Part shown: positions 10,978 through 38,085 of the stretch, piece after piece
Layout of the letters: every line of letters starts with the position of its first letter
Numbering within the stretch: the first letter of the stretch is position 1
DNA from: Vulcanimicrobiota bacterium
Lineage (GTDB): Bacteria; Vulcanimicrobiota; SpSt-956; JAKJGF01
Assembly (NCBI GenBank): GCA_040217695.1
Contig: JBEHWO010000021.1
Span: forward strand, 1 to 38,110
Reading direction: 5' to 3'
Length of the DNA: 38,110 nt
Program-made: the position numbers and the translations under genes
Notes under the pieces: generated by a model
Database searches by the model: none
Seen by the model: the letters and a program-made list of their open reading frames with translations, nothing else
What the model was told of the DNA's origin: nothing

Positions 10978-10994
10978 AATGTTTATTATTCTTC

Positions 10995-12083: not shown

Positions 12084-12089
12084 AGGTTA

Positions 12090-12138
12090 GTGAAAAGTGA
12101 AAAGTGAAAAGTGAAAATTCACTCTTCACTTTTCACTC
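12090..12138. repeat. (GTGAAAA)4 heptamer array folding back on its own reverse complement (hairpin); T-run follows on plus strand
   Basis: gtgaaaagtgaaaagtgaaaagtgaaaa-ttcactcttcacttttcactc. It sits between the PFOR stop (12147) and the ddhB start (12083). Confidence 0.8.
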
Positions 12139-12146
12139 TTTATTTT

Positions 12147-15100
12147 TTAATACTGCAGCCCTGCAAGCTTTTTATAATATTCATACCTTCGCTTTGCATC
12201 TTTTTCTGCTGCTTCAAAGAGGCTGTCAGCTTCGCCGGGGCAGATACGTTTCAGGGTCTGGTATCTGTTTTCATTTTTTAGATATGTGCTGAAAGCTTCT
12301 TTTGGTTCTTTGGATTCGAATATGAGAGGATTTTTGCCCTCTGCGGAAAGTCTGGGATCGTAACGATAAAGCGGCCAGTAACCGCATTCTACGGCAATTC
12401 TCTGTTCTTCCTGTGGTTTACTCATATTAATGCCATGATTGATACAGGGCGAATAGGCAATAACAAGTGATGGCCCGTTATAGGATTCCGCCTCAAGTAA
12501 TGCCTTGAGTGTCTGAGGTTTGTTTGCTCCCATAGAAATAGAAGCCACATATACATAACCATAGGCCATTGCCATAAGCCCTAAATCTTTTTTGCCTGTA
12601 CGCTTTCCTGCTGTGGCAAATTTTGCCGTCGATGCAAGAGGCGTTGCTTTGGAAGACTGTCCGCCTGTATTTGAATATACTTCCGTATCAAGGACCAGTA
12701 CATTTACATTCTCATTACAGGCCAGGACATGATCCAGTCCGCCGTAACCTATATCATAAGCCCATCCGTCTCCGCCGAAAGCCCAGATACTCTTGTCAAC
12801 GAAATAATCCTGAAGTTCTATAACCTTCTTTATAAAAGGAAGACTTTCGCTTTTTGCAGATTTTAAAGCTTCAGGAAGTAATGCTTTTATCTTTTCAGCA
12901 TTGTCTTTTGCTTCAGTATTTACAGATTTCCATAATTCTTTACCCTTCTTTAAAACTTCTTCAAGGGCAGGAGTTGTTCCGATTTCCAGTAATTTATCCA
13001 CATTAAAGGCAAGCTGTTTTCTGTTTGCATTTACAGCAAGACGGAAACCGAAGCCATATTCTGCATTGTCTTCAAAGAGAGAATTTGCCCATGCAGGACC
13101 TCTACCGGATTTTGTTACAGCATACGGAATGGTCGGGAAGGTTCCTCCGTAAATGGAAGAACAACCTGTTGCGTTGGCCACAATCATTCTGTCTCCGAAT
13201 AACTGTGTTACAAGTTTGACATAGGGAGTTTCACCGCATCCGGCACATGCTCCGGAAAATTCAAAGAGTGGCTGCAGGAACTGACTGCCTTTAAGTGTAC
13301 CGGGATCAATACCGTCAACTACATTGTCAGGGAGCCTGTCAAAGAATTCTGCATTCTTTGCTTCTCCTTTTTCTCTTTCTTCCGAAAGAAGTTTCAGCTC
13401 AAGAGCTTTTGTCTTTGCAGGACATGTATTGACACAGGAACCGCATCCCACGCAGTCTTCTATATATATCTGAACTTTGTATTTCAGATCTCTGGTGTTT
13501 TTGGTGTTAGATTTCAGTGTATTGAACGTTTTGGGAGCATCTTTCAGATCTGCCGGATCAATCTGTTTTGCCCTTATGGTAGCATGAGGACAGACATAGG
13601 AACACTGGTTGCACTGTATACAGTTTTCTGCTATCCAGTGAGGCACGAAAGGTGCAACACCTCTTTTTTCCAGCCTGGTTGTGCCGGTAGGAGTATATCC
13701 GTCAAGAGGCATTTTGGATACCGGTATATCGTCTCCCTTGAGTCTCATAATCGGTTCTATCACATCATGGGCAAAAGCTATGGCATCATCAGGGATTAAT
13801 TTTGGTGCTTTTGCGGATTTTGTAATAGTTCCGGGAACTTTAACCTGAACAAGGGCTTCTGATGTTTTATCCACACAGTCCCAGTTCATTTTTACAATAT
13901 TTTCACCTTTTTTGCTGAAGGTTTTCTTGATGGCACCTTTTACAAGGTCTATGGCTTCTTTCTCATCCAGAACGCCTGAAATCTTGAAGAAGGCAGCCTG
14001 CATAACAGTGCTGATACGGTTGCCGAGTCCTACTTCTTCTGCAATCTTCAGGGCATCAATATTATAGAATTTAAGTTTTTTATCTATAATGGTTTTCTGC
14101 AGATCTTCCGTCAGACGGTCAAATACTTCTTCTGATTTCCATGGGGAATTGAGAAGGAATGTTCCTCCATCAACAATACCTTCCAGAAGGTCATATCTTC
14201 CTATATAGGCAGGATTATGGCATGCTACAAAATCGACTTCTTTAAGTAAATAGGTAGACTGTATTGGTTCTTTACCGAAACGGAGATGTGATACTGTAAT
14301 GCCTCCTGATTTCTTTGAATCATAGGAGAAATAGGCCTGACCGAACATATCTGTATGATCGCAGATAATTTTTATGGAGTTTTTATTGGCACTCACAGTT
14401 CCGTCTGAACCGAGACCCCAGAATTTACATCTTACTATGCCTTTCTGTTCTGCAGAGATTTCTTCTCTTATCTTTACAGATCTGTGTGTTACATCATCTG
14501 TAATACCTACTGTAAAGTCATGGAAACATTCATTGTCGAGATGATCGTATACTGCTTTTACCATAGTCGGTGTAAATTCTTTTGAAGAAAGACCGTATCG
14601 GCCTCCTATGATAACAAGGTTTTTATCTGAGAGGGCAGTTTTTACATCCATATAGAGAGGTTCTCCTATGGAACCGGGTTCTTTTGTTCTGTCAAGGACT
14701 GCTATTTTCTTTACACTTTCCGGTATGGCTTTCTTAAGAGCTTCTACGGAGAATGGTCTGTAGAGTCTGACTTTTATGGCACCGACCTTTTCTCCTTTTT
14801 TAGTGAGATAATTTACACATTCTTCAATGGCTTCACAGCCGCTGCCCATGGCAATAATTATCTTTTCTGCATCTTTTGCTCCTATATAATCAAAGAGATG
14901 ATACTGGCGGCCAAATTTTTCCGCTACTTTATCCATATATTCCTGAACTATGGCAGGTGTAACTTCATAATATTTATTGCTTGTTTCTCTTCCCTGGAAA
15001 TAAACGTCGGGATTCTGTGCGCCTGTTTTTGCATAGGGTTTGTCAGGTCTCAATGCTCTGTCACGGAATTCCAGTATATAATCCATCTCTAAAAGATCTT

Positions 15101-15677
15101 TTATATCTTTATATTCCGGCACATTAATCTTCATAATCTCATGAGATGTTCTGAAACCGTCAAAGAAGTTCAGAAATGGCACTCTTGATTTAAGAGTGGC
15201 AAGATGTGACACAATGGCAAGATCCAGTGTTTCCTGAACAGAACCTGCTGCCATTAAAGCAAAGCCTGTACCTCTTGCTGCCATAACATCAGAATGATCT
15301 CCGAATATGGACAGTGATTGACATGCAAGAGAACGGGCAGATACGTGAAATACTGTGGGAAGCATTTCTCCTGCGATTTTAAACATATTGGGGAACATAA
15401 GTAACAGTCCCTGTGATGCTGTATAGGTTGTAGTCATGGCGCCTGCGCTGAGGGAACCATGTACTGCTCCTGCTGCTCCTCCTTCTGACTGCATCTGAAC
15501 GACCTTTAACACCTGATCGAACATATTTTTTCTGCCCTGGGCAGCCCATTCGTCTGCCAGTTCGCCCATCACGGATGACGGTGTAATCGGATATATTGCT
15601 GCCACTTCACTGAATGCATAGGCAACATAACTGGCTGCAGTATTACCGTCAAAGGGCTCCATTTTTTGTTTAACCAT
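12147..15677 (-). CDS. nifJ: Pyruvate:ferredoxin (flavodoxin) oxidoreductase, single-polypeptide type
   Basis: 1176 aa. The N-terminus MVKQKMEPFDGNTAASYVAYAFSEVAAIYPITPSS is the classic PFOR start. Two ferredoxin-type Cys clusters are present (CIQCNQCSYVCPHA and CVGCGSCVNTCPA). The C-terminal ThDP domain motif is present (GGDGWAYDIGYGGLDH). An AAAGGAG RBS lies upstream. Confidence 0.95.
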   Translation of the reverse strand: MVKQKMEPFDGNTAASYVAYAFSEVAAIYPITPSSVMGELADEWAAQGRKNMFDQVLKVVQMQSEGGAAGAVHGSLSAGAMTTTYTASQGLLLMFPNMFKIAGEMLPTVFHVSARSLACQSLSIFGDHSDVMAARGTGFALMAAGSVQETLDLAIVSHLATLKSRVPFLNFFDGFRTSHEIMKINVPEYKDIKDLLEMDYILEFRDRALRPDKPYAKTGAQNPDVYFQGRETSNKYYEVTPAIVQEYMDKVAEKFGRQYHLFDYIGAKDAEKIIIAMGSGCEAIEECVNYLTKKGEKVGAIKVRLYRPFSVEALKKAIPESVKKIAVLDRTKEPGSIGEPLYMDVKTALSDKNLVIIGGRYGLSSKEFTPTMVKAVYDHLDNECFHDFTVGITDDVTHRSVKIREEISAEQKGIVRCKFWGLGSDGTVSANKNSIKIICDHTDMFGQAYFSYDSKKSGGITVSHLRFGKEPIQSTYLLKEVDFVACHNPAYIGRYDLLEGIVDGGTFLLNSPWKSEEVFDRLTEDLQKTIIDKKLKFYNIDALKIAEEVGLGNRISTVMQAAFFKISGVLDEKEAIDLVKGAIKKTFSKKGENIVKMNWDCVDKTSEALVQVKVPGTITKSAKAPKLIPDDAIAFAHDVIEPIMRLKGDDIPVSKMPLDGYTPTGTTRLEKRGVAPFVPHWIAENCIQCNQCSYVCPHATIRAKQIDPADLKDAPKTFNTLKSNTKNTRDLKYKVQIYIEDCVGCGSCVNTCPAKTKALELKLLSEEREKGEAKNAEFFDRLPDNVVDGIDPGTLKGSQFLQPLFEFSGACAGCGETPYVKLVTQLFGDRMIVANATGCSSIYGGTFPTIPYAVTKSGRGPAWANSLFEDNAEYGFGFRLAVNANRKQLAFNVDKLLEIGTTPALEEVLKKGKELWKSVNTEAKDNAEKIKALLPEALKSAKSESLPFIKKVIELQDYFVDKSIWAFGGDGWAYDIGYGGLDHVLACNENVNVLVLDTEVYSNTGGQSSKATPLASTAKFATAGKRTGKKDLGLMAMAYGYVYVASISMGANKPQTLKALLEAESYNGPSLVIAYSPCINHGINMSKPQEEQRIAVECGYWPLYRYDPRLSAEGKNPLIFESKEPKEAFSTYLKNENRYQTLKRICPGEADSLFEAAEKDAKRRYEYYKKLAGLQY

Positions 15678-15807
15678 AATTAGATAAAACTCCTTTCCTT
15701 TGTTTTATAAAAAATTATTATAAGTTTTCTCTAATTCATGGGTAACTCCTTCTTCAGAAAAAAAAATCTACAATTTGACACTCTCTGTTAATTGAGCTAA
15801 AATATTT

Positions 15808-15836
15808 ATCAGCTATCAGCTATCAGCTATCAGCAG
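15808..15836. repeat. (TCAGCTA)n heptamer tandem array, about 4 units
   Basis: The sequence atcagctatcagctatcagctatcagcag lies in the divergent PFOR-glgC intergenic region. Confidence 0.85.
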
Positions 15837-15872
15837 TAAGTTTGTTTCAATGTTTTAAATAAAAATATATAC

Positions 15873-15978
15873 TTATTGACCTGAGCATAAGCATGTAATA
15901 AAGGTCTTCTTCCCGTCACGCGTTACGCGTCACGGGTCACGAGAGCAGTTATGTATTATTTATGCTCACCTCAGTAAT
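15873..15978. repeat. About 105-bp dispersed intergenic element, copy A (CCTGAGCATAAGCATG ... CGTNACG heptamer core ... TTATTTATGCTCACCTCAG)
   Basis: It is near-identical to 37763-37868 and its 5' end matches 37988-38010. The ends are imperfect inverted repeats (GAGCATAA / TTATGCTC). An internal array CGTCACGCGTTACGCGTCACGGGTCACG is present. Confidence 0.8.
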
Positions 15979-16001
15979 TACTAAAGAAAGGCGATGGTAT
16001 A

Positions 16002-17282
16002 ATGGCAAGAATTCCTATGGATCAGATACTTACGGTAATACTCGGAGGCGGAAGAGGGACGAGACTTTTCCCTCTTACAAAAATGCGATCCAAACCGGCA
16101 GTTCCCCTTGGAGGTAAATACAGACTCATAGATATTCCGATTTCAAACTGTATTAATTCGGGTATAAGAAAAATTCTTATTCTGACTCAATTTAATATGG
16201 CATCACTTGCCAAACACATATATGAAGCCTATAGATTTGACAGTTATTCGAAAGGTTTCCTGGAAATACTTGCAGCAGAACAGACACCTGAAAATCTGGA
16301 CTGGTTTCAGGGCACAGCAGATGCAGTGAGGAAACAGATCAGCCATATAAAAACAAGACAGGGCAATTATATCCTCATTCTTTCCGGTGATCATCTCTAT
16401 AAGATGAATTACAGAGACTTCCTTCAGACCCATATAGAAAACGGTGCAGAATTGACTATAGGCGTTCAGCCTGTAGCTGAAGAACTTATTAAAGAATTCG
16501 GTATAATGCAGGTCAACAATAAAGGTAGGGTTACGGGCTTTGTGGAAAAGCCCAAAGAATCGTCTGTTTTTGAGCCCTTCAGAGTACCGAAAGAAATGTT
16601 CTATGAAAAATTCGGAAGTTATGAAGGAAAAGATTTCCTGGCTTCTATGGGTATATATATTTTTAACAGGGATCTGCTTTTTGATATACTGGACAATACT
16701 GATTTAATAGATTTCGGAAAAGACATAATTCCTAAATGTATAAAAGATAATAAAGCAGTATATGGTCATTTCTTCAACGGCTACTGGGAGGATATCGGAA
16801 CAATAAAGGCCTTTTTTGATGCAAATCTTGCCCTCACAGACGAAAGAGCCAGATTTAAAATGTATGATATAGACTTCCCTGTATATACAAACTCACGATA
16901 TCTGCCTGCATCTAAATTTCATGACTGTGTCATAAAAAATTCCATTATCTCAGACGGCTGTATTATATTTAAAGCCAGTATAGAAAGAAGTGTTATAGGC
17001 ATAAGAAGTTTTATAGAGCCTGACTGCGAGATAAAGAACGCCATAATCATGGGAGCGGATTATTATGAATTCGGCCCGAGAGACACAAAACAACTGCTTG
17101 GCATAGGGGAGAAGAGTATTTTACACAACTGTATCATAGATAAGAATGTTTGCATAGGCCATAATGTTAGGCTCATAAATAAAGATAATGTTTTCGAAGG
17201 TGACAGAGAGAATTTTTATATAAGAGACGGTATCATTGTTGTGCCGAAAAATGCCATAATACCTCATAATACGGTAATTTAA
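16002..17282 (+). CDS. glgC: Glucose-1-phosphate adenylyltransferase
   Basis: 426 aa. The sequence ILGGGRGTRLFPLTKMRSKPAVPLGGKYRLIDIPISNCINSGI is present. The C-terminal region is compatible with a left-handed beta-helix. Confidence 0.9.
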   Translation: MARIPMDQILTVILGGGRGTRLFPLTKMRSKPAVPLGGKYRLIDIPISNCINSGIRKILILTQFNMASLAKHIYEAYRFDSYSKGFLEILAAEQTPENLDWFQGTADAVRKQISHIKTRQGNYILILSGDHLYKMNYRDFLQTHIENGAELTIGVQPVAEELIKEFGIMQVNNKGRVTGFVEKPKESSVFEPFRVPKEMFYEKFGSYEGKDFLASMGIYIFNRDLLFDILDNTDLIDFGKDIIPKCIKDNKAVYGHFFNGYWEDIGTIKAFFDANLALTDERARFKMYDIDFPVYTNSRYLPASKFHDCVIKNSIISDGCIIFKASIERSVIGIRSFIEPDCEIKNAIIMGADYYEFGPRDTKQLLGIGEKSILHNCIIDKNVCIGHNVRLINKDNVFEGDRENFYIRDGIIVVPKNAIIPHNTVI

Positions 17283-17285
17283 GGT

Positions 17286-17378
17286 AAGTGAGTAGTGAGT
17301 AGTGAGTCGTGAAAAGTGAAAAGTGAAAAATGCTCAGGCTTGCCATACGCATCACGCGTCACGCGTCACGCGTCACGA
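17286..17378. repeat. Composite repeat block L: (GTGAGTA)2 GTGAGTC (GTGAAAA)3 - ATGCTCAGGCTTGCCATACGCATCACG - (CGTCACG)3
   Basis: Its reverse complement recurs at 18544-18686. It overlaps the 3' end of hemW, whose last about 4 codons are encoded by the repeat. Confidence 0.8.
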
Positions 17379-18535: not shown

Positions 18536-18543
18536 TATAATTT

Positions 18544-27363: not shown

Positions 27364-27483
27364 TTATTTAAGCCTTCTTTCATTCTGAATATATGTTTAT
27401 ATTTACAAATATTATATATTTTTAAATTATTAATGTCAATTATTTGATAACTTAAGAAATATGACGTATAATATATTATAGTC

Positions 27484-27608
27484 GTAACGCGTTACGGGTT
27501 TAATCCCTGCGCATCACGCATTACGCATTACGCATTACGCATTACGACGTTATTATGTTTATATATAAAATAAACCATCGCGTCACGCGTCACGCGTCAC
27601 GCGTCACG
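27484..27608. repeat. Cluster of heptamer arrays: CGTAACG/CGTTACG, (CATTACG)4, (CGTCACG)4
   Basis: The sequences are gtaacgcgttacgg ... gcatcacgcattacgcattacgcattacgcattacg ... cgcgtcacgcgtcacgcgtcacgcgtcacg. The last array ends 7 nt before the histidine kinase ATG, leaving no room for a Shine-Dalgarno sequence. Confidence 0.85.
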
Positions 27609-27615
27609 AATTACT

Positions 27616-29343
27616 ATGAATATACGTAAAAAAACACTTATCGTTATAATAATTACATTTATATTTTTAATTATATTGCTTTATATAATTTCAAGAGTAA
27701 TACTTCTGGGAGGCTTTATTGATTTAGAGAAAAAAACCGTTACAAGGAATGTAGAAAGAGCTGTAAATGCATTGCAGGATGAATATATCTCTCTGGCAGC
27801 CATTACAGGAGACTGGGCTCCCTGGGATGAGACCTATAAATTTATTGAAGATTTAAATAAATCCTATATAAATGATAATCTCAACAGGGCAACTCTTGTG
27901 AATTTAAGGGTTAATCTTATATTTTTTATTAATTCTTCAGGGGAAATGGTTTTTTCTAAAGGAGTTGATCTTGTATCAGGTAAAGAGATACATGCCGGAA
28001 GTCTGAATGGTTTTTTAAGTGACACTTCGCCGCTTTTAAACCACCAGAGCACGACCAGCAGTGTTGTAGGTATTATTATGTTTCAGGGAAGGCCTATGAT
28101 TGTTTCCTCCCGTCCTATTCTTACGAATGAATGGAAAGGCCCTTCGAGAGGTACACTGATTATGGGGAGATTTATCGATGATGCAGAGGTTAACAGGCTC
28201 AGAGATATTACATCTCTTTCGATTAATATCTATAAACTGTCTGCACTGGATCTGCCTTATGATGTCCGGCAGGTAAAGGATCATTTCTTGAAAGAAACAG
28301 GTATTTTTGTGAGACCTCTTAACAGAGATTATACGGCAGGTTACATTATGTTAAAAGATATTTACGGACAACCTGTCCTTATATTAAAGGTAGATATGGT
28401 AAGAGAGATTTACCTTCAGGGAAAGAGGAGTCTCTACTATTTTATACTGTCCTTTCTCGTAGTTGCAATTGTACTTGGCATGGTAAATATGTTACTCCTG
28501 GATATGACAGTTCTTTCCCGTCTTTATCTTTTGAGTAACAGTGTTGACAATATAGGTCTTATAAAGGATCTTTCCCTGAAGAAATTACTCCCCGGAGAGG
28601 ACGAAATTGCTTCTCTTGCCTGTACCATTGACAGCATGCTTGAAAGACTGGATGCGTCAAGTGAACAGATAAGACATGCAGACAGACTGGCCACTATAGG
28701 AAAATTTGCTTCAGGCATAGCCCATGAATTAAATGAACCGCTGGGAAATATACTTGGTTTTGCACAGCTTGCAAAACAGTATCCGTCTCTCCCGGAACAG
28801 ACTGTAGCAGATCTTGAAAAAATAGAAAAATCTTCTCTTTATGCAAGAGAGATAGTAAAAAAACTGCTCCTCTTCGCCAGACAGGTACCTTCTCATAAGG
28901 TTACTCTGAATATTAATGAGATAATTAAAGACAGCCTTTATTTTTTTGAAGGAAAATGCGAACAGTCCGGTATAGAAGTGATTATTCAGCTTTCAGAAAC
29001 TCTTCCTCCTGTTACAGCAGATCCTTCTCAGATGACACAGATACTGATTAATCTTGTAACCAATGCCATTCATGCTATGCCAGACGGAGGAATGCTTGAA
29101 ATAAAGACTTATTCATCTGAAGATTCTATCTCTCTTATTGTAGCAGATACAGGAAAAGGCATGAATGATGAGACTAAAAAACATATATTCAATCCTTTCT
29201 TTACTACAAAAGATGTTGATCAGGGAACAGGTCTGGGGCTTGCCGTGGTACATGGTATAGTTTCTTCTCATGGAGGACATATTAAGATTGACAGTAAAGA
29301 GGGTAATGGAGCAAGGTTTGAAATACAGATACCTTTAACGTAA
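27616..29343 (+). CDS. Sensor histidine kinase with periplasmic CHASE(4)-like domain, HAMP, HisKA and HATPase domains
   Basis: 575 aa. TM1 is IVIIITFIFLIILLYII. A periplasmic domain of about 250 aa follows. TM2 is YYFILSFLVVAIVLGMV. The H-box is GIAHELNEP. The G2 box is GTGLGLAVVHGIV. The sensor-domain class is assigned from memory of CHASE4 architecture. Confidence 0.85.
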   Translation: MNIRKKTLIVIIITFIFLIILLYIISRVILLGGFIDLEKKTVTRNVERAVNALQDEYISLAAITGDWAPWDETYKFIEDLNKSYINDNLNRATLVNLRVNLIFFINSSGEMVFSKGVDLVSGKEIHAGSLNGFLSDTSPLLNHQSTTSSVVGIIMFQGRPMIVSSRPILTNEWKGPSRGTLIMGRFIDDAEVNRLRDITSLSINIYKLSALDLPYDVRQVKDHFLKETGIFVRPLNRDYTAGYIMLKDIYGQPVLILKVDMVREIYLQGKRSLYYFILSFLVVAIVLGMVNMLLLDMTVLSRLYLLSNSVDNIGLIKDLSLKKLLPGEDEIASLACTIDSMLERLDASSEQIRHADRLATIGKFASGIAHELNEPLGNILGFAQLAKQYPSLPEQTVADLEKIEKSSLYAREIVKKLLLFARQVPSHKVTLNINEIIKDSLYFFEGKCEQSGIEVIIQLSETLPPVTADPSQMTQILINLVTNAIHAMPDGGMLEIKTYSSEDSISLIVADTGKGMNDETKKHIFNPFFTTKDVDQGTGLGLAVVHGIVSSHGGHIKIDSKEGNGARFEIQIPLT

Positions 29344-29373
29344 CATGTGACGCGTGACGGGAGAATTGTAATG

Positions 29374-29390
29374 TGACGCATAATGCGTCA
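29374..29390. promoter_or_regulatory. Perfect palindrome TGACGCAT-A-ATGCGTCA centred on the annotated response-regulator ATG
   Basis: Seen directly in the sequence: 8-bp arms with a 1-nt centre. Upstream lies GTGACGCGTGACGGGAG, a heptamer repeat boundary. Confidence 0.5.
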
Positions 29391-30759
29391 TAAACACAGG
29401 GAAGGTGTGTATAAAGTGTCTGATAAGGAACGCATATTAATTGTAGATGATTCAATAAATACCCTGGAGGTTCTTCAGAGAAATCTTACTTCTCAGGGAT
29501 ATAAAGTATTCACTGCTTCAGGTGTGGGAGAAGCAATCAAGCTTCTTGAAACATTAACACTTGATCTGGTAATAACGGATCTCCGTATGCCAAAAGTAAG
29601 CGGTATGGATCTGATAAGGCATGTAAGGGAAAATTTTAAAGATACGGAAATTATGATGATTACCGGTTATGCCTCTATTGAAAGTGCTGTCGAAGCGGTA
29701 AAGATTGGTGCAGAGGAATACCTTTCCAAACCCTTTACATCTGAAGAACTTTTTGCGGCAGTAAGACGTACTCTGGACAAACTCATACTCAGGAGAGCCA
29801 GAAATAAATCAACTGATATTGCCCCTGCTCCCTATGGTATAATAGGCCAGTCTGTAGCAATTAAAAAGATTTTTTCCGATATAGAGAAAGCTGCTTCAAC
29901 ATCTGCTACTGTTCTTATCACCGGTGAAAGCGGTACAGGAAAAGAGCTTGTTGCCAGAGCGATACATTATACCGGCCCCCGTGCATCTTCACCCTTTGTC
30001 CCGGTAAATTGCGGCGGCATACCGGAAGGTTTACTGGCAAGCGAGCATTTTGGCCATGTAAAAGGTTCTTTTACCGGTGCTACGGAAACAAGAGCAGGTT
30101 TTTTTCAGACTGCAGACGGAGGAACTATATTCCTTGATGAAATAAGTGATACAGGCCTTTCCATGCAGGCAAAACTGCTCCGTGTTCTTCAGGAAAAAGA
30201 AGTCTGTATGGTAGGTTCCACAAAAACAAGAAAAGTGGATGTAAGGGTTCTTGCTGCGACCAATAAAGATCTCCGGTTACTATCTAACAAAGGTGTCTTC
30301 CGGGAAGATTTATATTTCCGCCTTAATGTTATTACTATCGATCTCCCGCCACTCCGTGAGAGAGGAGAAGATATTGTATTATTAACATATTATTTTGCCG
30401 CAAAATTTGCCGGAGAAGCAGGCAAATCAGTTCCGTCTTTTTCGGATAATGCTCTTCAGGTTATAAAAAACTATCACTGGCCCGGAAATATAAGAGAACT
30501 TGAGAATGTAATCAACCGCCTTGTAGTTATGACAGACGGAAATTTGATCGAAGTTCCTGATTTACCGTCTCTTATGCGCTTCTCTGCCCTCAGAACAGCA
30601 GGCCTTAACAGACCTCTTGCAGAGGTAGAATTAGAATATATATCCAATGTTCTGTCGAGTGTGGGAGGAAATAAAACACAGGCGTCGGAAATACTGGGAA
30701 TTGACAGGAAGACACTCAGAGAAAAATTGAAAAAATTTAAGCTCGATGATGAATCGTGA
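29383..30759 (+). CDS. Sigma-54-dependent response regulator (NtrC/PilR family: REC + AAA+ sigma-54 activator + Fis-type HTH)
   Basis: 458 aa. The REC domain carries ILIVDDS...DLVITDLRMP. The Walker A is GESGTGKELVARAIH. The GAFTGA-equivalent is GSFTGA. The C-terminal HTH is KTQASEILGIDRKTLREKL. An alternative start is the in-frame GTG at 29416, 11 nt after a GGGAAGG RBS. The annotated ATG lies inside the palindrome at 29374-29390. Confidence 0.9.
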   Translation: MRHKHREGVYKVSDKERILIVDDSINTLEVLQRNLTSQGYKVFTASGVGEAIKLLETLTLDLVITDLRMPKVSGMDLIRHVRENFKDTEIMMITGYASIESAVEAVKIGAEEYLSKPFTSEELFAAVRRTLDKLILRRARNKSTDIAPAPYGIIGQSVAIKKIFSDIEKAASTSATVLITGESGTGKELVARAIHYTGPRASSPFVPVNCGGIPEGLLASEHFGHVKGSFTGATETRAGFFQTADGGTIFLDEISDTGLSMQAKLLRVLQEKEVCMVGSTKTRKVDVRVLAATNKDLRLLSNKGVFREDLYFRLNVITIDLPPLRERGEDIVLLTYYFAAKFAGEAGKSVPSFSDNALQVIKNYHWPGNIRELENVINRLVVMTDGNLIEVPDLPSLMRFSALRTAGLNRPLAEVELEYISNVLSSVGGNKTQASEILGIDRKTLREKLKKFKLDDES

Positions 30760-30840
30760 GTAGTGAGTCGTGAAGGGTGAATTTTACGCGTCACCCGTCA
30801 CGCGTTACGCGTCACGATTATAACGCATCACGTCTCACGG
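30760..30840. repeat. Heptamer arrays (GTGAGTA/GTGAGTC, CGTCACG/CGTTACG/CATCACG)
   Basis: The sequence is tgagtagtgagtcgtgaagggtgaattttacgcgtcacccgtcacgcgttacgcgtcacgattataacgcatcacgtctcacgg. Confidence 0.8.
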
Positions 30841-31000: not shown

Positions 31001-31017
31001 TTGGTACAGAACCTGCT
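31001..31017 (+). promoter_or_regulatory. Candidate sigma-54 (-24/-12) promoter: TTGGTACagaacCTGCTA
   Basis: It matches TGGCACG-N4-TTGCW at 10 of 12 specified positions. The invariant GG and GC are at the correct 10-bp offset. The predicted transcription start near 31028 lies 60 nt upstream of the small Cys-rich ORF and the kinase and pilin genes. The site is immediately downstream of an NtrC-type activator gene. Confidence 0.45.
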
Positions 31018-31087
31018 ATTATAGTAATTGAAACACTGAATGTATAATCTTCAAAGGTATAATCTTTCCGGTAAAAGGAGAAATTCG

Positions 31088-31312
31088 ATGTTAAAAAGCA
31101 GAGATTACAGTTATGATAATAAATGTCTCTATCTTACTTCATGTGATCTCTGTAACCCCGGAATAACAGAGGAGAATAATCTTATTGTTCACAATAATGT
31201 AAGAGATTATACTGAAGGCCTGTGTGCTCATTGCGTAAAAACTGGTACATGTGCAATTGCCAGAGCAGAAGGCGGTATCTGGCGTTGCAGTGATTATATA
31301 GAAAATGAATAA
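31088..31312 (+). CDS. Small Cys-rich protein (74 aa), putative zinc-ribbon-like, unknown function
   Basis: The track ORF starts at 31040. The preferred start is ATG 31088 (MLKSRDYSYDNKCLY...), with an AAAGGAG RBS 7 nt upstream. It has seven Cys with mirror-symmetric spacing: C-x5-C-x2-C, then 23 residues, then C-x2-C-x5-C, plus a C-terminal Cys. Confidence 0.45.
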   Translation: MLKSRDYSYDNKCLYLTSCDLCNPGITEENNLIVHNNVRDYTEGLCAHCVKTGTCAIARAEGGIWRCSDYIENE

Positions 31313-31353
31313 TTTAAAGTTTAACCGAAAAGGATGTGGGAAAGGTGAAAGTT

Positions 31354-33327: not shown

Positions 33328-33349
33328 TTATACAAAGGGGGGGATATAT

Positions 33350-33787
33350 ATGGCTAAAGAGAAAGGTATCACTTTGATGGATGCCATGATTTCCGTTACA
33401 GTTCTTGCTATTGGATTTTTAATGATTTTAACGGTTATTCCCGGCACAGGAATCTTTATAAAAAATTCTGAAAATAAACTTGTTGCAAAACAGCTTGCTC
33501 AGACTTATCTGGAATTATATTCCAGTCCCCAGCACTGGTCAGAGATAAATACGTCAGGATTTAATATTACAAGAACTGAAACCGTCACTACCACTATAAA
33601 CGGAAGAATTACTTCTATGAACTATACAGTATATGTAACATCTTATCCGTATGCAGGTGCTACTGGTGAACTTTACAATCTGAATGCCAGAGTTACATGG
33701 CAGGAACAGAATCTGGGTAAATCCCTTACTGCAGCAGGTAAGATTAAACAGATAGAACTCGTTACGATTGTTATAAATCCCAATTAG
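33350..33787 (+). CDS. Type IV pilin-like / pseudopilin (minor pilin) protein
   Basis: 145 aa. The N-terminus MAKEKG|ITLMDAMISVTVLAIGFLMIL is a class III (prepilin) signal with Gly at -1 and an acidic Asp at +5, followed by a hydrophobic helix. An AAAGGGGGGGA RBS lies upstream. Confidence 0.6.
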   Translation: MAKEKGITLMDAMISVTVLAIGFLMILTVIPGTGIFIKNSENKLVAKQLAQTYLELYSSPQHWSEINTSGFNITRTETVTTTINGRITSMNYTVYVTSYPYAGATGELYNLNARVTWQEQNLGKSLTAAGKIKQIELVTIVINPN

Positions 33788-33801
33788 AAAAGAGGTGTGT
33801 T

Positions 33802-34476
33802 ATGTTTAATAAATTTAAAGGTGTTACAATAACTGAACTTCTTGTTACCATTGCTGTTATGGGTCTTATGTTCAGTATGATACTTGCCATCATGGTTCTT
33901 CTTAAAAGAAGTTATAGTGAAGAAGACAGCCGTTCTGCCATGCAGCAGAATGCTGCAGTGGCTCTGGCAAAACTTACGAGAGAACTTATGGAATCTTCTT
34001 ATAAGACTACAACCATATATAATCCTTCAAGTTCCAGTCCTCCTACAGGCATAATATTTGCTTCTGCCAGGCAGATTTCTAATTATAATAAATTTGATCT
34101 CGACCCGAATAATTCTCTATGTGTATGGCATAAATATGTATGTTATTATATAGATACAGACCCCGAACGGGCGTCACAGAAAGCTCTTTTCAGAAGAGAA
34201 ACCTATATAAATGAACCTTCCGGAACTACAACAAAAGGTGCCTCCAGTTTAAGTACTAGTAACTTTGTGACCGGCGGTACGGGATATTCACCGGCAATAG
34301 TTATAGCCCACAGGGTAGAAGATCTGGATTTCCCTGATCTCGGTGTCGGTAATTTCGGGCCTGCACAGATCGGTAATGTTCTGCCTTTGAAAGTATCACT
34401 GAAAATTGCCGAAAAATCAGCCACACAGAATTATAACGCCGTGACTCTTACTTTTACAATGAATATGAATAATTAA
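33802..34476 (+). CDS. Type IV pilin-like / pseudopilin (minor pilin) protein
   Basis: 224 aa. The N-terminus MFNKFKG|VTITELLVTIAVMGLMFSMILAI is a canonical prepilin peptidase site with Glu at +5. An AGAGGTG RBS lies upstream. Confidence 0.7.
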   Translation: MFNKFKGVTITELLVTIAVMGLMFSMILAIMVLLKRSYSEEDSRSAMQQNAAVALAKLTRELMESSYKTTTIYNPSSSSPPTGIIFASARQISNYNKFDLDPNNSLCVWHKYVCYYIDTDPERASQKALFRRETYINEPSGTTTKGASSLSTSNFVTGGTGYSPAIVIAHRVEDLDFPDLGVGNFGPAQIGNVLPLKVSLKIAEKSATQNYNAVTLTFTMNMNN

Positions 34477-34503
34477 GCTTATAAATAAAAAGGAGGGAAA
34501 GAC

Positions 34504-35877
34504 ATGTATAAAAAATATATCAAAAATCAGAAAGGCATAGGAGTTGCCATTACTCTTCTTGCCATAATGATTATTTCAATTTTAGGTATGGCCCTTCTTA
34601 TAAGAAGCACATCCCTTGCAGGAGTCATTACACAGAAAAATTATACCATTACTGCTACGGAAGCAGCAAAAGCAGGTATATCTCATGCCATACACATGGT
34701 TGAAGCAGACCTTTACTATACCACTCCTATTTCTTATACTCCTCTTTCAACCTATACAGTTACAAACCATGTTGAAAGAGGCTACTACAAAGTAGATCTA
34801 TTAAATAATCTGGAAGGTACCGTTCCTCTGACTTCTCCTTACAGCGGTTATGTCGTTCCTCCGGGAGTGATTGAAGTGGTATCCACCGGATATGCAGGTA
34901 ATCCCGTTTTAAACGAACAGAAGAGAACCATGAAGATTGTTGCAATGGGAAACAGACTGGATGTTCAATTTAATCCCTGGAGTAATGCTCTTACACTGGG
35001 GGGAACTATTAATCCCGGCGGTGATGCAGGAGGTAATGAAATCCTTACGGACAGTTACGATTCTTCTGCAGTTCCACCTCGTTATTCAGGAGGTACAGAA
35101 GGAGATATTGCAATATTAAACCTTGATCAAACTGTAGACCTGGGCTCCAGAAACATACAGGGAGAAATAAAAGTGCCTGAGGGCGCCAGTGTGACCGGAA
35201 CGGGCACATATCTGGATGCAAACGGTGTTCAGCATGACCTTGATGACCCGAACCGGTATTTTACTTCTATGACAGACCCATTTGTTATGACTTCTGTTAT
35301 GCAGAAGACTCCCGGAACTGTTGATGTTAAAAATAACGCCACTTTGTCTCCGGGAGCATACCGCGATATGTTCCTGGAAAGTAACAGGACCATAGTGCTG
35401 GAACCTGGCACTTATATATTCAGAGATATTATCAACAGCGGAGGAGGATCTTCCAAAGGACGTGTAAATCTCAAGCTTAACGGACCTGTGAAGATCTTTG
35501 TTACCGGTAATATCTCTATGACCGGAAATGTCAATATTAATTCTATTCAGGAAGCAGATGGTACATGTCATCCCGATCGTCCCGCTTCTTATCTTAAGGT
35601 TTTTGGAACAGAAACCTGTACCAGTGTAACTATTGGAGGTTCTGTATGTTTCTGTGGCGGTGTATATGCTCCCGATGCCACATTTACCTTTAATGGCCTG
35701 GGTGGCAATAATGAAAAAGTAAAATCTGATCTATGGGGGTCTTTCGCAGGAAATAATGCCGTATTTTCAGGTGCTAAAGTAAGTATTCATTATGATGAAA
35801 TGCTTAACGACGGAAATATTGAAACATTTTATACAGGTATTGCAAAGGATAGTATGAGGTGGGTTTACGGATACTAA
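34504..35877 (+). CDS. PilX-N-like minor pilin / putative pilus tip adhesin, paralog 1
   Basis: 457 aa. The N-terminus NQKGIGVAITLLAIMIISILGMALL is a PilX_N-type hydrophobic segment with no Glu5. A large Gly/Thr/Asn-rich C-terminal region carries GNVNINSI-type beta-rich repeats. An AAGGAGG RBS lies upstream. Confidence 0.6.
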   Translation: MYKKYIKNQKGIGVAITLLAIMIISILGMALLIRSTSLAGVITQKNYTITATEAAKAGISHAIHMVEADLYYTTPISYTPLSTYTVTNHVERGYYKVDLLNNLEGTVPLTSPYSGYVVPPGVIEVVSTGYAGNPVLNEQKRTMKIVAMGNRLDVQFNPWSNALTLGGTINPGGDAGGNEILTDSYDSSAVPPRYSGGTEGDIAILNLDQTVDLGSRNIQGEIKVPEGASVTGTGTYLDANGVQHDLDDPNRYFTSMTDPFVMTSVMQKTPGTVDVKNNATLSPGAYRDMFLESNRTIVLEPGTYIFRDIINSGGGSSKGRVNLKLNGPVKIFVTGNISMTGNVNINSIQEADGTCHPDRPASYLKVFGTETCTSVTIGGSVCFCGGVYAPDATFTFNGLGGNNEKVKSDLWGSFAGNNAVFSGAKVSIHYDEMLNDGNIETFYTGIAKDSMRWVYGY

Positions 35878-36165
35878 TATTGTAATATCATAAACAGGAA
35901 GGAAGATTATTATAGATATTATTATTCGGAAAGATACATCTAAATTAAAACAATGTGCCTGGTGCAAAAAGATAAAAAACGCTGATACAGGCATATGGAA
36001 GGAAACAGGAGAACTTATTCAGGGGATCAGTCATACTGTCTGCCCTGAGTGTAATAAACAGTTATGGAAAAACTATCTTGAAACATGTGAGGCTGAGGAA
36101 GAATAAGTTGAAGTGAAAGCTAATTACCGAGACAGGTAAATTCGTAACTATTTATGAATTATTTA

Positions 36166-36335
36166 TATGAGAATCGTGACGCGTAACGCGTAACGCGTGA
36201 CGGGAGGAAGACAAAATCACAGATTGTCCGGTGTTATATTTTTCTCTGTCACCCTGGGACTGACCGAAAAATACCTCCGGCAGTTATTATAACGATCAGT
36301 ATCCTCGCGTAACGCGTCACCCGTTACGCGTTACG
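36166..36335. repeat. Inverted heptamer arrays flanking a 100-bp unique core
   Basis: The left array is tatgagaatcgtgacgcgtaacgcgtaacgcgtgacgggagg (36166-36207). The right array is cgcgtaacgcgtcacccgttacgcgttacg (36306-36335), which is approximately the reverse complement of the left. The left array is near-identical to 20960-21000. Confidence 0.8.
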
Positions 36336-36359
36336 ATATTACGGTACTCAGCGGAGCAT

Positions 36360-37748
36360 TCACTCGAAGATCCATCTCATAGAACCCTTTGCTATACCTG
36401 CATAATAACGTTCCCCTTCTGAGTCCAGGGCTTTATCGTAGTGAATACTTATTTTTGCTCCGTTAAATGTAGCACTCTTCCCGGCAAAGGAACCCCACAG
36501 GTCAGAGTTTGTATTACCCATGCCATGAAATATAAAATCAGCATTGGGGGCATATATGGATCCGCAAAAGCTTCCTCCCCCTCCCATTTCTACAGAGGTA
36601 CAACTGCTGGTTCCGAAGATCTTCAGTTGAGAAGCCGGTTCGTCCGGATGGGTAACAGTTTTATTACCATGTTCCTTTTCTTCTCTGATAGTATTGATAT
36701 TTACATTTCCCGAAAGATTAATACTTCCTGTGACATAAAGAGTCACATTTCCGTTAACCTTCAGATTTATATCTGCATTACCTCCTCCTGAAAGGGTAAG
36801 ATTCCTGAAAATATAGGCACCTTCATTTAATACTGTAGTAATGTTACCACTTATTAATAAATCTCTGTAAGCACCTCCGCCGGTCAGGGTCTGGCCGGGA
36901 TTTACGTCAGCAGTCCCGGGAATCTTTTCCTGCACGGGAGGCAGAACAATTGGTTCCGCCATAACAGTATAATTTGTGTCAGGCAGGGTACGGGAAATAC
37001 CGTTCGGGTCGAGATAGTTGCCGCTGCCGCTTACAGCAGTTCCAGGAGGAACCTTTATTTCTCCTTTAATATTTCTGTCACCGAGCTCAACGGCTGGATT
37101 GCTGTCGGGATCATTGGGATCTGATTTTACACCGTTTGCCGCAATATCTCCGTCATTACCTCCTGAATAAACACCGGGTTCTACGGAAGAATCGTAACTG
37201 TCTGTAAGAATGGAATTACCTCCTGCACCGCCGCCGGGAGTAATCTTTCCGCTCAGGGTAATAGCATTGCTCCATGGATTGAATGTTGCATCCACCCTGT
37301 TTCCCATTGTAATAATTTTTATAGTTTTTTTCTGGTTACCTGCAGCAGGATTGCCCGAATATCCGGTAGAGATTACCTCGATTACTCCCGGAGGAATAAC
37401 ATAACCACTCCTGGGAGAGGTCAGGGGAGAAGCTCCTGACAGATTATTTGTTATATCCACTTTATAGTATCCTCTTTCACTATCCGGCGTAATAGTATAG
37501 GTTGACAGAGGAGTGCAAGAAATAGAAGCGGAATAGTAAAGATCCGTTTCAACCCGGTGTATGGCATGAGATATACCAGCTTTTGCAGCTTCCGTAGCAG
37601 TGATGGAATAATTTTTCTGTGCAATTACTCCTGCCAGAGATGAACTTCTGATAAGAAGGGCCATACCTAGAATTGAAATAATCATTATGGCAAGAAGAGT
37701 AATAGCAATCCCTATACCTTTCTGATTTTTGATATATTTTTTATACAT
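36360..37748 (-). CDS. PilX-N-like minor pilin / putative pilus tip adhesin, paralog 2 (convergent with paralog 1)
   Basis: The track ORF is 36360..37784. Its first 12 codons (MLMLRSVKGANK) are read from repeat element B. The real start is MYKKYIKNQKGIGIAITLLAIMIISILGMALL at about 37748. The first 70 aa are about 90% identical to the 34504 gene. The architecture is collinear and the C-terminal halves diverge. Confidence 0.6.
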   Translation of the reverse strand: MYKKYIKNQKGIGIAITLLAIMIISILGMALLIRSSSLAGVIAQKNYSITATEAAKAGISHAIHRVETDLYYSASISCTPLSTYTITPDSERGYYKVDITNNLSGASPLTSPRSGYVIPPGVIEVISTGYSGNPAAGNQKKTIKIITMGNRVDATFNPWSNAITLSGKITPGGGAGGNSILTDSYDSSVEPGVYSGGNDGDIAANGVKSDPNDPDSNPAVELGDRNIKGEIKVPPGTAVSGSGNYLDPNGISRTLPDTNYTVMAEPIVLPPVQEKIPGTADVNPGQTLTGGGAYRDLLISGNITTVLNEGAYIFRNLTLSGGGNADINLKVNGNVTLYVTGSINLSGNVNINTIREEKEHGNKTVTHPDEPASQLKIFGTSSCTSVEMGGGGSFCGSIYAPNADFIFHGMGNTNSDLWGSFAGKSATFNGAKISIHYDKALDSEGERYYAGIAKGSMRWIFE

Positions 37749-37762
37749 TTTATTTGCCCCCT

Positions 37763-37868
37763 TTACTGACCTGAGCATAAGCATGTAATAACAGTCTTCC
37801 TCCCGTGACGCGTCACGCGTTACGCGTCACGAGAGCAGATATTTATTATTTATGTTCACCTCAGTAAC
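37763..37868. repeat. About 105-bp dispersed intergenic element, copy B
   Basis: The sequence is actgacctgagcataagcatgtaataacagtcttcctcccgtgacgcgtcacgcgttacgcgtcacgagagcagatatttattatttatgttcacctcagtaa. It is near-identical to 15873-15978. Confidence 0.8.
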
Positions 37869-37987
37869 ATAAATTCTGTTGTATCCGGGGATGTTGAAGA
37901 GAAAATTTTGGTAGGATGTTATGTAATTCCCACAAAAGCTGACTGCTGATAGCCGAAGGCTTACGTAAAATTTTTCTGTTAAAGCTA

Positions 37988-38010
37988 TTACTGACCTGAG
38001 CATAAGCAAT
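37988..38010. repeat. 5'-end fragment of the same element (copy C, truncated)
   Basis: The sequence ttactgacctgagcataagcaat matches the first about 22 bp of copies A and B and then diverges. Confidence 0.6.
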
Positions 38011-38054
38011 TAATATTTTAATATGTTATAAACCAGATTAGATAAGGTTTTCTG

Positions 38055-38085
38055 GCTTTTCACTTTTCACTACTCACTTCAGTAA
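38055..38085. repeat. Heptamer-derived array (CTTTTCA/CTACTCA units, the reverse complement of GTGAAAA/GTGAGTA)
   Basis: The sequence is ggcttttcacttttcactactcacttcagtaa. Confidence 0.7.

Follow-up and report, generated by a model that had tools for sequence, protein, structure and literature searches.

Dense intergenic arrays of seven-nucleotide tandem repeats in a contig labelled Vulcanimicrobiota and in its relatives

Genes, arrays and repeat units

The stretch of DNA analysed here, referred to below as the window, is the 38,110-nt contig JBEHWO010000021.1 of a Vulcanimicrobiota bacterium assembly (GCA_040217695.1), in which short tandem arrays of 7-nt units (heptamers) lie between the genes, all of them between positions 12,089 and 38,079. 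The genes next to the arrays are ordinary housekeeping or signalling genes, encoding pyruvate:ferredoxin oxidoreductase, GlgC, a HemW-like radical-SAM protein, LepA, a vault-protein-like protein, a CHASE4 histidine kinase and a sigma-54 response regulator. An earlier note on this DNA had listed tandem heptamers at a series of sites. Using Tandem Repeats Finder and a self-match scan of periods 4 to 12, we found period-7 arrays at every site named, although the array placed at 15900 begins at 15914 and the site at 29346 holds only two units and a short palindrome.

Under strict criteria, the self-match scan gave 15 arrays, all of them at period 7 within the tested range of 4 to 12. With a looser score of at least 10, 23 period-7 arrays were recorded, together with one each at periods 6, 9, 11 and 12 and none at periods 4, 5, 8 and 10. 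The number of period-7 arrays expected by chance, as determined in 200 first-order Markov simulations of the window, was 0.10 on average and 2 at most. Between 12,084 and 38,110 the arrays account for 688 nt, or 19% of the 3,683 nt of intergenic DNA, and at least one array was present in each of the 12 intergenic regions of 38 nt or longer. The earlier statement that almost every intergenic region is occupied is therefore correct for this part of the window, but not for positions 1-12,083, in which the scan detected no heptamer array. Unlike the remainder, this array-free part is a compact minus-strand operon for sugar modification or polysaccharide biosynthesis, which encodes a thiamine pyrophosphate (TPP) enzyme, a NeuB-cupin protein, a family-2 glycosyltransferase, a radical-SAM protein, a C-methyltransferase, a DegT aminotransferase, an amine oxidase and an epimerase/dehydratase.

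An assembly artefact was considered and rejected, as the arrays are found also in an identical Logan contig, in a metagenome-assembled genome (MAG) at NCBI and in two Joint Genome Institute (JGI) metagenomes; the Logan contig, from SRR21798919, equals the window over 1,374 nt, array sequence included. In a broader lineage set of 432 kb of related sequence (86% coding), we counted 229 arrays at period 7 vs. 1-16 at other periods. The majority (182) were intergenic, 31 lay at gene edges and 16 fell inside open reading frames (ORFs), mostly ORFs with over-extended starts. The heptamer arrays are a genuine and robust feature of a kind that is already known, and here they are very dense. No Rfam family matched anywhere in the window at gathering thresholds, which places the repeated elements outside known RNA families, and a full-text literature search with the array sequences themselves found no paper.

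After rotation, all the common units fall into one heptad family with a GT[GA]A core and three variable bases: GTGAAAA, GTGAGTA/C, GTGACGC (the rotated CGTGACG), GTAACGC, GTGATGC and GTAATGC. The core (T[CT]AC on the complementary strand) stays constant while the other three positions drift. We refer to the GT[GA]A strand as R and to the T[CT]AC strand as Y. Each unit of the R strand contains GTG plus TGA or TAA and, because 7 is not a multiple of 3, an R array gives stops in all three frames; the Y strand contains no start or stop codon in any frame. The outlier is AGCTATC, or CTGATAG on the other strand. This unit and CATTACG had been described as recurring; both are present, but AGCTATC forms an array at one site only (15807-15834) and CATTACG one clean array (27510-27546).

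The CGTNACG units are only apparently palindromic. The central base is a pyrimidine throughout one strand in 83 of the 108 lineage arrays and in 34 of the 39 arrays from other phyla; the commonest pattern of central bases is C,T,T,C, and full self-complementarity was seen in 7 of 115 arrays. Run lengths of CGTNACG peak at four units, with five arrays of two units, six of three, ten of four and one of five.

The arrays are embedded in longer repeated elements with conserved linkers. Besides Element A (~105 nt), these comprise Element C (...CAGTATCCTCG-array-ATACAAATCG...), Element D (TATGAGAAT-array-GGAGGAA...ATTCTCATA), a fourth composite (CGTRATG-CGCAGGGATTAAACC-CGTYACG) and a fifth one (GTGAGTN-GTGAAAA-linker-CGTYACG), which flanks the HemW-like gene as an inverted pair. 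The fixed order of concatenated units reported earlier, GTGAGTN-GTGAAAA-linker-CGCATCACG-CGTCACG, was confirmed at three places, 17286-17377, 18544-18690 (as the reverse complement) and 30757-30816 (in a degenerate version). The ~90-bp inverted composites on either side of the HemW-like gene suggested a transposon or invertible segment; this was ruled out, as the gene is a radical-SAM housekeeping gene of constant order and orientation in all relatives. Likewise, CCTCC beside Y arrays was considered as an anti-Shine-Dalgarno device and rejected: CCTC[CG] stands directly 5′ of 42 of the 108 lineage arrays but of none of the 39 elsewhere, indicative of a trait of local families of miniature transposable elements and not of the array itself. 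A segment of the form GTGTTTATATGTTCGGGATTTTYGTGGGAAT-(CGTRACG)4-GGAGG is shared at ~97% identity by two genomes, at L042 1165-1290 and L058 520-640, although identity in the genes on either side is no more than 78%; either recent spread of an element or conservation of a leader may explain it.

Placement, turnover and mobility

The closest LepA homologues, at 97% and 95% protein identity, lie on L098 (contig CAYSLJ010000099.1 of MAG GCA_964431735.1) and on L100 and L101, contigs of the two JGI metagenomes. The three contigs are syntenic with the window from 15.9 to 30.6 kb, with DNA identities of 91% (L098) and 85% (L100/L101), and each carries 13-14 period-7 arrays at orthologous places and none at periods 5, 8 and 9. 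The window is thus not the only place where the arrays occur. At 77-81% LepA identity, three loci of relatives (L103, L105, L107) are array-free and one (L106) has six arrays of other units, TCAGCTA and TAGTTAT among them, a patchy presence that points to a sporadic trait. CAYSLJ01, DAIOEN01 and JBEHWP01 are array-rich genomes, and GCA_964632485.1 is an array-free relative. Genes of MAGs named 'uncultured Synergistia bacterium' (CAYSLJ01) and 'Vulcanimicrobiota bacterium' (DAIOEN01, JBEHWP01) are 91-95% identical in DNA and share one repeat repertoire; with both labels on one lineage, at least one of them is wrong. By LepA, the named organisms that come closest (68% identity) belong to Zixibacteria, Ignavibacteria and Calditrichota, in the Fibrobacterota-Chlorobiota-Bacteroidota (FCB) group.

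The placement of the arrays is strongly biased in both position and orientation. In a set chosen without regard to pattern (the window, L098 and L100, with curated gene calls and arrays within 30 nt of a gene end), 14 of the 15 arrays next to a stop were R-sense, several of them holding the stop codon itself, and 10 of the 11 arrays next to a start were Y-sense. The overlap with stop codons noted earlier is real, as stops lie within the first unit at 23794, 30757 and 18679. The larger lineage set gave the same directions: CGTNACG arrays nearest a start were Y-sense by 41:10 and those nearest a stop R-sense by 32:16, and GTGANNN arrays nearest a stop were forward by 19:9, at a median distance of 4.5 nt. 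Because R arrays trail genes and Y arrays precede them, neighbouring arrays face each other and give stems of 20-30 bp between genes; in facing pairs, the order R then Y (GTGA arm, TCAC arm) was found 28 times and the order Y then R three times.

Results of a four-way alignment of the orthologous region showed that each intergenic region retains the position and orientation of its array, while units and copy numbers vary. After the glgC stop, the window has (GTGAGTA)3 (GTGAAAA)3, L098 a longer mix with about twelve CGCATCA units, and L100 (GTGAATA)2. After the lepA stop the respective arrays are GTGAGTC GTGAATC (GTGAAAA)3, (GTGAGTA)4 (GTGAAAA)3, and (CAGTGAT)4 with a GC hairpin. Across orthologous arrays, units thus drift from GTGAAAA to GTGAGTA to CAGTGAT with place and orientation kept. 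Paired hairpin arms change together, from GTGAAAA/TTTTCAC in the window to GTGAGTA/TACTCAC in L100, and the stem of a convergent terminator changes from GTGAGTA/TACTCAC to GTGAGCA/TGCTCAC. Length polymorphism at orthologous loci, as looked for, takes the form of insertions or deletions of exactly 7 nt. We observed three vs. two CGTGACG units between L028 and L094, whose flanks are 95% identical, and, in the histidine-kinase leader, five vs. six CGCATYA and two vs. four CGTRACG units. [quoted passage not shown]

The MITE in question, Element A, was found in 31 copies. It is ~105 nt long and non-coding, with defined inverted ends (CTGACCTGAGCATAA and TTATGCTCACCTCAG) and a core of 1.5-5 heptamer units. 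One copy in L094 is missing from the orthologous site in L028, where the flanks are 95% identical. An empty site in the window (~20680) reads ACATTTAT-TTAA-TTTACAAATT and the filled site in L050 reads TTA-[CTGACC...CCTCAG]-TAA, from which a duplication of TA by Element A follows. TA duplication is a hallmark of IS630/Tc1-mariner elements. The two ends differ consistently (CC vs. GG) in almost all copies, a pattern more easily explained by a transposase that recognises them than by selection for base pairing. Element A is thus a mobile, TA-duplicating MITE, and many of the (CGTYACG)~4 arrays form the cores of such small mobile elements. A second MITE-like element of ~215 bp, bounded by the inverted ends AGAGCYTATCCGAAAAGT / ACTTTTCGGATAGGTTCT, lies at 20558-20779 and contains a further inverted repeat (CCGGGGGGTGAG...CTCACCCCCCGG) in its interior. 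The element is missing at the orthologous site in L098, and an L050 copy, 77% identical, carries an Element A insertion.

One scan for (CGTNACG)4, which took in 185,579 species genomes, gave at least 93 loci. At least 35 were in the CAYSLJ01 MAG labelled Synergistia, in at least 35 separate 8-kb blocks, and at least 24 in two MAGs labelled Vulcanimicrobiota. Among the matches listed there were also MAGs of Aminicenantes, Acidobacteria, Bipolaricaulota, Bacteroidales, Clostridia, Chloroflexi, Kiritimatiellales, Verrucomicrobia, Patescibacteria and Nitrospirota; many MAGs from outside the lineage have a GC content above 60%. In these other phyla, intergenic CGTNACG arrays near stops were R-sense by 17:3, mostly 4-18 nt past the stop. 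Most arrays that were scored as lying inside ORFs occupy the extreme 5′ end of over-extended ORFs, indicative of Y-sense arrays ahead of the start. Carriage by phages was also considered; (CGTNACG)4 was present in 3 of 2.9 million viral contigs, and phages are therefore not an obvious vector. In GC-rich Aminicenantes/Acidobacteria MAGs (L002, L034, L035, L074, L088), (CGTRACG)4 leads into a GGAAGAA tract rich in purines, after which come heptamer arrays of AAATTCC: a second composite around the CGTRACG heptad, and one specific to that lineage.

Hairpins, leaders and individual sites

The hairpins attributed earlier to arrays that face their own reverse complement are real in RNA folding, with dG -29.8 and a z-score of -8.6 for 12084-12146 and dG -31.4 and z -8.3 for 23790-23860. 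Intergenic regions with arrays fold more strongly than array-less ones (-0.263 vs. -0.192 kcal per nt). The sole canonical terminator-like hairpin, which is bidirectional, was located at 25261-25286.

A promoter-like TTGATA-17-TATAAT upstream of the arrays in the histidine-kinase leader is conserved in all three genomes, which suggests that the arrays there are probably transcribed; judging from such motifs, whose -35 and -10 hexamers are close to consensus, arrays downstream of promoter-like sites probably lie in 5′ untranslated regions. Another promoter-like module, TTCTAATAAGTTATGAAATACACTATAAT, occurs 19 times; as a rule it adjoins the 3′ side of a Y array, with a Shine-Dalgarno (SD) sequence and ATG 30-75 nt further on. 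Its sites include L017 3370, L056 5460, L057 296 and L065 775, and it is also present downstream of hairpin 3′ arms. The recurrence of this module suggests a portable hairpin-plus-promoter unit common to intergenic regions.

As had been pointed out for the histidine-kinase gene, there is no room for an SD sequence at its start: (CGCGTCA)4 ends at 27608 and the ATG is at 27616, with the 7-nt AATTACT, which holds no SD, between them, an arrangement conserved in two related genomes. Across the three genomes, the arrays of this leader end 7-11 nt from the ATG with no SD. An SD was also absent beside arrays at seven or more other starts, with some arrays 0-11 nt from the ATG. Three conserved genes have lost the SD next to arrays, and the vault-protein-like gene has kept a strong one.

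The individual sites are given here in map order, on the plus strand unless stated otherwise. The hairpin at 12089-12140, to which no strand is assigned, is formed by (GTGAAAA)4 facing (TTCACTY)3 over 22 bp and fills the 63-nt gap between the pyruvate:ferredoxin oxidoreductase stop and the next start codon. A promoter-like TTGACA-17-TAAAAT (15775-15803) is followed directly by (TATCAGC)4 (15807-15834), the whole feature spanning 15775-15834; this array is missing from the orthologous leader in L100. Copy 1 of Element A (15873-15978; z -5.4) lies in the glgC leader between inverted ends TTAYTGACCTGAGCATAA / TTATGCTCACCTCAGTAA, with the core CCCGTCACG CGTTACG CGTCACG GGTCACG at 15914-15941, and no Element A is found at this site in L098 or L100.

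Directly 3′ of the glgC stop, a composite array (17286-17377) consists of (GTGAGTA)2 GTGAGTC (GTGAAAA)3, the linker ATGCTCAGGCTTGCCAT and ACGCATC (ACGCGTC)3. The HemW-like gene, which is convergent, overlaps with its 3′ end the last of these units, and the orthologous sites have other units in other copy numbers. The inverted composite (18544-18690, minus strand) separates the lepA stop (18679) from the probable HemW-like start (18535) and reads GTGAGTC GTGAATC (GTGAAAA)3, linker, CATYACG units, (CGTYACG)3, CGCATCACGGATCACG and ATG on its strand; it is 93% identical to the reverse complement of 17309-17363. A degenerate element related to Elements A and D follows on the minus strand (20955-21035), built as TATGAGAAT-array-GGAGAA with (CGTAACG)3 CGTTACG at 20969-20996.

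The vault-protein-like gene (21337-23796) encodes a bacterial protein of 819 AA, in which an SPFH-like region accompanies the major vault protein's shoulder and repeat domains, and it is conserved and syntenic in L098, L100 and L101. Upstream of it, at 21190-21256, CGTAATG-like units and the linker GGACAGTGCTTAAACC lead into (CGTCACG)2 CGTAACG CGTCACG (21229-21256), an array 80 nt from the start whose L100 counterpart is (GGTCACT/GATCACT)n. Two successive hairpins follow the gene (23792-23925; z -8.3). The first pairs GTGAGTA (GTGAAAA)3 with (TTCACTT)3 and has the TGA stop within its first unit; the second is GTGAGTG/TACTCAC. Between convergent genes at 25218-25298 (no strand assigned), (GTGAGTC GTGAGTA)2.5 GTGAAAA GTGAGTA runs into the stem AGTGAGTAGAA/TTCTACTCACT and then a T-run, and the L100 counterpart has the stem AGTGAGCAGAAG/CTTCTGCTCACT with a T-run.

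In the histidine-kinase leader (27444-27608) the promoter-like TTGATA-17-TATAAT (27444-27472) is followed in order by CGTAACGCGTTACG (27484-27497), GGTTTAATCCCTG, (CGCATYA)5 (27510-27546), an AT-rich spacer and (CGCGTCA)4 (27579-27608). A remnant between the histidine-kinase and response-regulator genes (29346-29382) comprises TGTGACG CGTGACG GGAG and the palindrome GTGACGCATAATGCGTCA. At 30757-30840, GTGAGTA GTGAGTC GTGAAGG GTGAATT, (ACGCGTC-like)4 (30786-30816) and ACGCATCACGTCTCACG follow one another, with the TGA stop of the response-regulator gene within the first unit.

Two small ORFs rich in cysteine (31040-31312 and 35909-36107), which have CxxC pairs and match no Pfam family, adjoin two DUF7305 paralogues and a Ser/Thr kinase that has a beta-propeller domain. 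Past them lie a copy of Element D (36166-36206), TATGAGAAT-(CGTGACG CGTAACG CGTAACG CGTGACG)-GGAGGAAGAC, which is 95% identical to 20960-21000, and a partial Element C (36270-36345), ...CAGTATCCTCG-(CGTAACG CGTCACC CGTTACG CGTTACG)-ATATTACGG. Copy 2 of Element A (37763-37868) is 90% identical to copy 1 and has the core CGTGACG CGTCACG CGTTACG CGTCACG (37804-37831). In an Element A variant at 37988-38085, the left end is unchanged and the interior and right end are composed of TTTTCAC/TACTCAC units (38056-38079).

Interpretation and comparison with known systems

With confidence that reaches about halfway, we favour a reading in which the arrays are heptanucleotide microsatellites akin to the short tandemly repeated repetitive (STRR) sequences of cyanobacteria. 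They build, in untranslated regions, a mosaic of extragenic elements that resembles the repetitive extragenic palindromic (REP) sequences and bacterial interspersed mosaic elements (BIMEs) of enterobacteria, and their function is one that we infer. The arrays would arise by replication slippage plus transposition of MITEs, and selection would retain only the orientations that are harmless to translation. The GTGA/TCAC hairpins may act in a REP-like manner, as 3′-end barriers that protect the transcript or insulate neighbouring genes; they lie between the stop of one gene and the promoter of the next and would not be classical intrinsic terminators. Leader arrays would force SD-independent initiation at their genes.

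Several observations weigh against this reading. A run-length mode of four is not predicted by free slippage and needs either a four-unit master copy or a constraint on length, and the presence of (CGTNACG)4 in unrelated phyla, with the same strand purity and placement after stops, goes beyond slippage within a lineage. About 0.5 Mb of lineage sequence yielded no ORF between paired ends of Element A, and so no autonomous partner for it. The bias at stops is partly forced, because a stop-free array beside a gene would read as coding. When folding was compared by strand, array-bearing regions showed no asymmetry (31 vs. 29) and array-less regions favoured the sense strand (43 vs. 22); there is thus no G-U signature of RNA-level selection. 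Equal folding of the strands and the turnover of array and MITE in the glgC leader argue against a finely tuned RNA function. A U-tract was generally lacking from the ten array hairpins inspected, so that a terminator role is unproven for them; the earlier proposal that arrays serve in transcription termination finds support in the one canonical intrinsic terminator (25261-25286) but not in most hairpins. Transcription of the arrays is itself deduced from promoter-like motifs and their conservation.

The arrays could instead be cis-elements for a dedicated factor with a 7-nt footprint, one molecule per heptad, on DNA (after the model of omega/ParB) or on RNA (cold-shock-domain or S1-type proteins), which would mark gene boundaries for insulation, termination or translation control. 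Such a factor would account for a conserved GT[GA]A/T[CT]AC core with three drifting positions, the near-deterministic orientation at gene ends, the position of Y arrays directly upstream of TTCTAATAAGTTATGAAATACACTATAAT and the use of one heptad in one placement in several phyla. Recognition at the level of DNA fits the equal folding of both strands, and the mode of four contiguous CGTNACG units recalls the omega threshold of at least four TCAC-core heptads (PMC9499535). Yet no candidate protein and no ribbon-helix-helix gene was found within the window, and the turnover of the glgC-leader array among the window, L098 and L100 speaks against an essential regulatory site. In addition, the preferred facing order, GTGA then TCAC, is the opposite of that of omega, and the arrays, in contrast to operators on plasmids, are on the chromosome at roughly one per gene. 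We consider a dedicated factor possible, but rather unlikely. Nor do we find it very probable that the arrays are purely selfish or neutral DNA, made of microsatellite-prone MITE families and their debris and oriented only by purifying selection against harmful insertions. MITE hallmarks with presence/absence polymorphism, the fast turnover of units and copy numbers, the sporadic occurrence in relatives whose LepA is 77-81% identical (L103, L105 and L107 without arrays, L106 with other units) and the absence of strand asymmetry in folding energy would all be expected of such DNA. What it leaves unexplained is that position and orientation persist in three species despite replaced sequence, that the start-side bias (10/11) is not forced by reading-frame logic, that the SD was lost beside arrays at three conserved genes, and that CGTNACG run lengths peak at four units.

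Two further explanations receive still less credence. Contingency loci, in which slipped-strand changes of copy number toggle adjacent genes (phase variation), are very improbable here: exact 7-nt differences do occur between close relatives and some arrays stand between a promoter-like site and a start codon, but the neighbours are housekeeping genes (pyruvate:ferredoxin oxidoreductase, glgC, lepA, HemW-like) and not surface or virulence genes. The arrays are found at nearly every gene, outside reading frames and outside -35/-10 spacers, and the variable ones lie in untranslated regions of housekeeping genes (glgC, lepA, pyruvate:ferredoxin oxidoreductase), so that the slipped-strand phase variation raised earlier is not borne out. 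We give hardly any credence to the link, also raised earlier, with a restriction-modification or methylation system for which the arrays would be clustered ACGCGT targets. CGTNACG arrays do place ACGCGT every 7 bp, and 28 of the 30 ACGCGT sites of the window are in arrays; outside arrays, however, the motif is neither avoided nor enriched, with two sites observed vs. 4.5 expected from composition and 0.8 from a Markov model. Moreover, the GTGAAAA and GTGAGTA families behave alike without ACGCGT, and no methyltransferase or endonuclease gene was found within the window.

A broader proposal, which we regard as speculative and improbable, is that GT[GA]A-core arrays are a conserved gene-boundary signal in several uncultured phyla, read by a heptad-binding factor with one molecule per 7 nt and a four-unit quantum. 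The stop-rich strand would be recognised behind genes and its complement ahead of them, setting 3′-end formation, insulation and SD-independent initiation, and the horizontal spread of the signal would be the work of MITEs that had captured it.

Heptamer repeats have ranked first among over-represented long simple repeats of bacteria since the surveys of 2007, with cyanobacteria, Beggiatoa and Xanthomonas as known cases, and the present lineage may be the densest case yet, with about one array per gene and, extrapolating from 0.6-0.9 arrays per kb, thousands per genome. New here are the common core, the near-deterministic rule of orientation, the preferred length of four units, the co-changing hairpin arms, the direct evidence for slippage and for transport by MITEs, and a heptad shared across phyla. 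With these constraints one can ask specifically about the strand that matters, the factor that would read the heptads and the effect of inverting an array. In practice, the arrays will break short-read assemblies and mislead ORF callers, as the stop-free strand lengthens ORFs, and they flag genes that must start translation without an SD.

The likeness to cyanobacterial STRR sequences suggested earlier holds, in that the arrays have a period of 7, are strongly intergenic, occur genome-wide in relatives and fall into several unit families. Like the STRR and long simple sequence repeat (LSSR) heptamers of heterocystous cyanobacteria, they are short 7-nt tandem arrays with several families per genome, intergenic and sporadic. 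STRR units include CCCCAGT, TTGGTCA and CAACAGT. Unlike these, the present units have a GT[GA]A core and a low-GC uncultured anaerobe as host; the arrays are much denser (~0.6-0.9 per kb) and near-deterministic in orientation, and many are carried on MITEs. None of GTGAAAA, GTGAGTA/C, CGTSACG, CGTWACG, CATTACG and AGCTATC is identical to STRR1-3 or to TAACTGA, and AGCTATC alone comes within one base of the latter. Heptamers are the most over-represented long simple repeats in bacteria, with polymerase slippage proposed as the cause (Mrazek 2007, as quoted in PMC4679880 and PMC4692102), and heptamer repeats are sporadic across the phylogeny (PMC4679880).

TAACTGA repeats are known from marine Beggiatoaceae, some cyanobacteria and Bacteroidetes, and MacGregor has proposed that RNA-binding proteins of the cold-shock-domain or S1 type are involved (MacGregor 2015, PMC4679880). 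The likeness lies in intergenic arrays of 2-6 copies, one strand of which has stops in every frame, in their abutting start codons without a ribosome-binding site, and in a heptamer common to unrelated phyla (PMC4679880). The (AGCTATC)4 of the window, as CTGATAG, is one base from CTGATAA, the rotated TAACTGA of Beggiatoa. In Beggiatoa, however, the stop-rich strand faces the start, whereas here the stop-free strand does so and the stop-rich strand follows stops; there is also essentially one unit and one inverted pair there, and here many units with inverted pairs as the rule (PMC4679880). The GGGAATC and GGGGAYT repeats of Xanthomonas and Nostoc are similarly intergenic, with a four-unit mode and conserved core positions (Rehm et al. 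2015, PMC4692102), and they share inverted pairs with stem-loop potential and variation of length and sequence at shared loci of close species; their units are G-rich and quadruplex-capable, and the units here are not (PMC4692102). At L100 9600-9682, upstream of the lepA region, we observed facing (TGGGTGT/TGGGTTT)n and (ACCCAAC)n, G-rich heptamers which recall the quadruplex-forming GGGNATC repeats of Xanthomonas and Nostoc.

On DNA, the omega ribbon-helix-helix (ParB) protein of pSM19035 provides a model, as each dimer reads one TCAC-core heptad and contiguous WATCACW heptads, at least four of them for full activity, are required (PMC9499535). Shared with the arrays are contiguous 7-bp heptads with a T[CT]AC core at 7-bp spacing, direct and inverted arrangements and a mode of four; yet omega operators are on a plasmid and have a known protein, whereas the present arrays are chromosomal, genome-wide and of the opposite inverted preference (PMC9499535).

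In anatomy, the arrays resemble the REP/BIME sequences of enterobacteria, with extragenic palindromic units in alternating orientation joined by conserved linkers, positions after stops and between operon genes, and hundreds of copies. REPs are single imperfect palindromes of ~35 nt with a 5′ GTAG motif, mobilised by REP-associated tyrosine transposases (RAYTs). Here, unlike in REPs, the palindrome arms are heptamer microsatellites, and a search of the genes within the window found neither a RAYT (tnpA-REP) transposase gene nor a GTAG-type motif. By position and shape, the closest functional analogue would be the REP/BIME hairpin as a 3′-end barrier or insulator. Element A shares with IS630/Tc1-mariner-type MITEs a length of ~105 nt, the lack of coding capacity, inverted ends, the TA duplication, many copies and presence/absence polymorphism, and differs from them in that its core is a variable heptamer array. 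The present arrays thus belong with the heptamer simple repeats, are REP/BIME-like in architecture and include a genuine MITE family.

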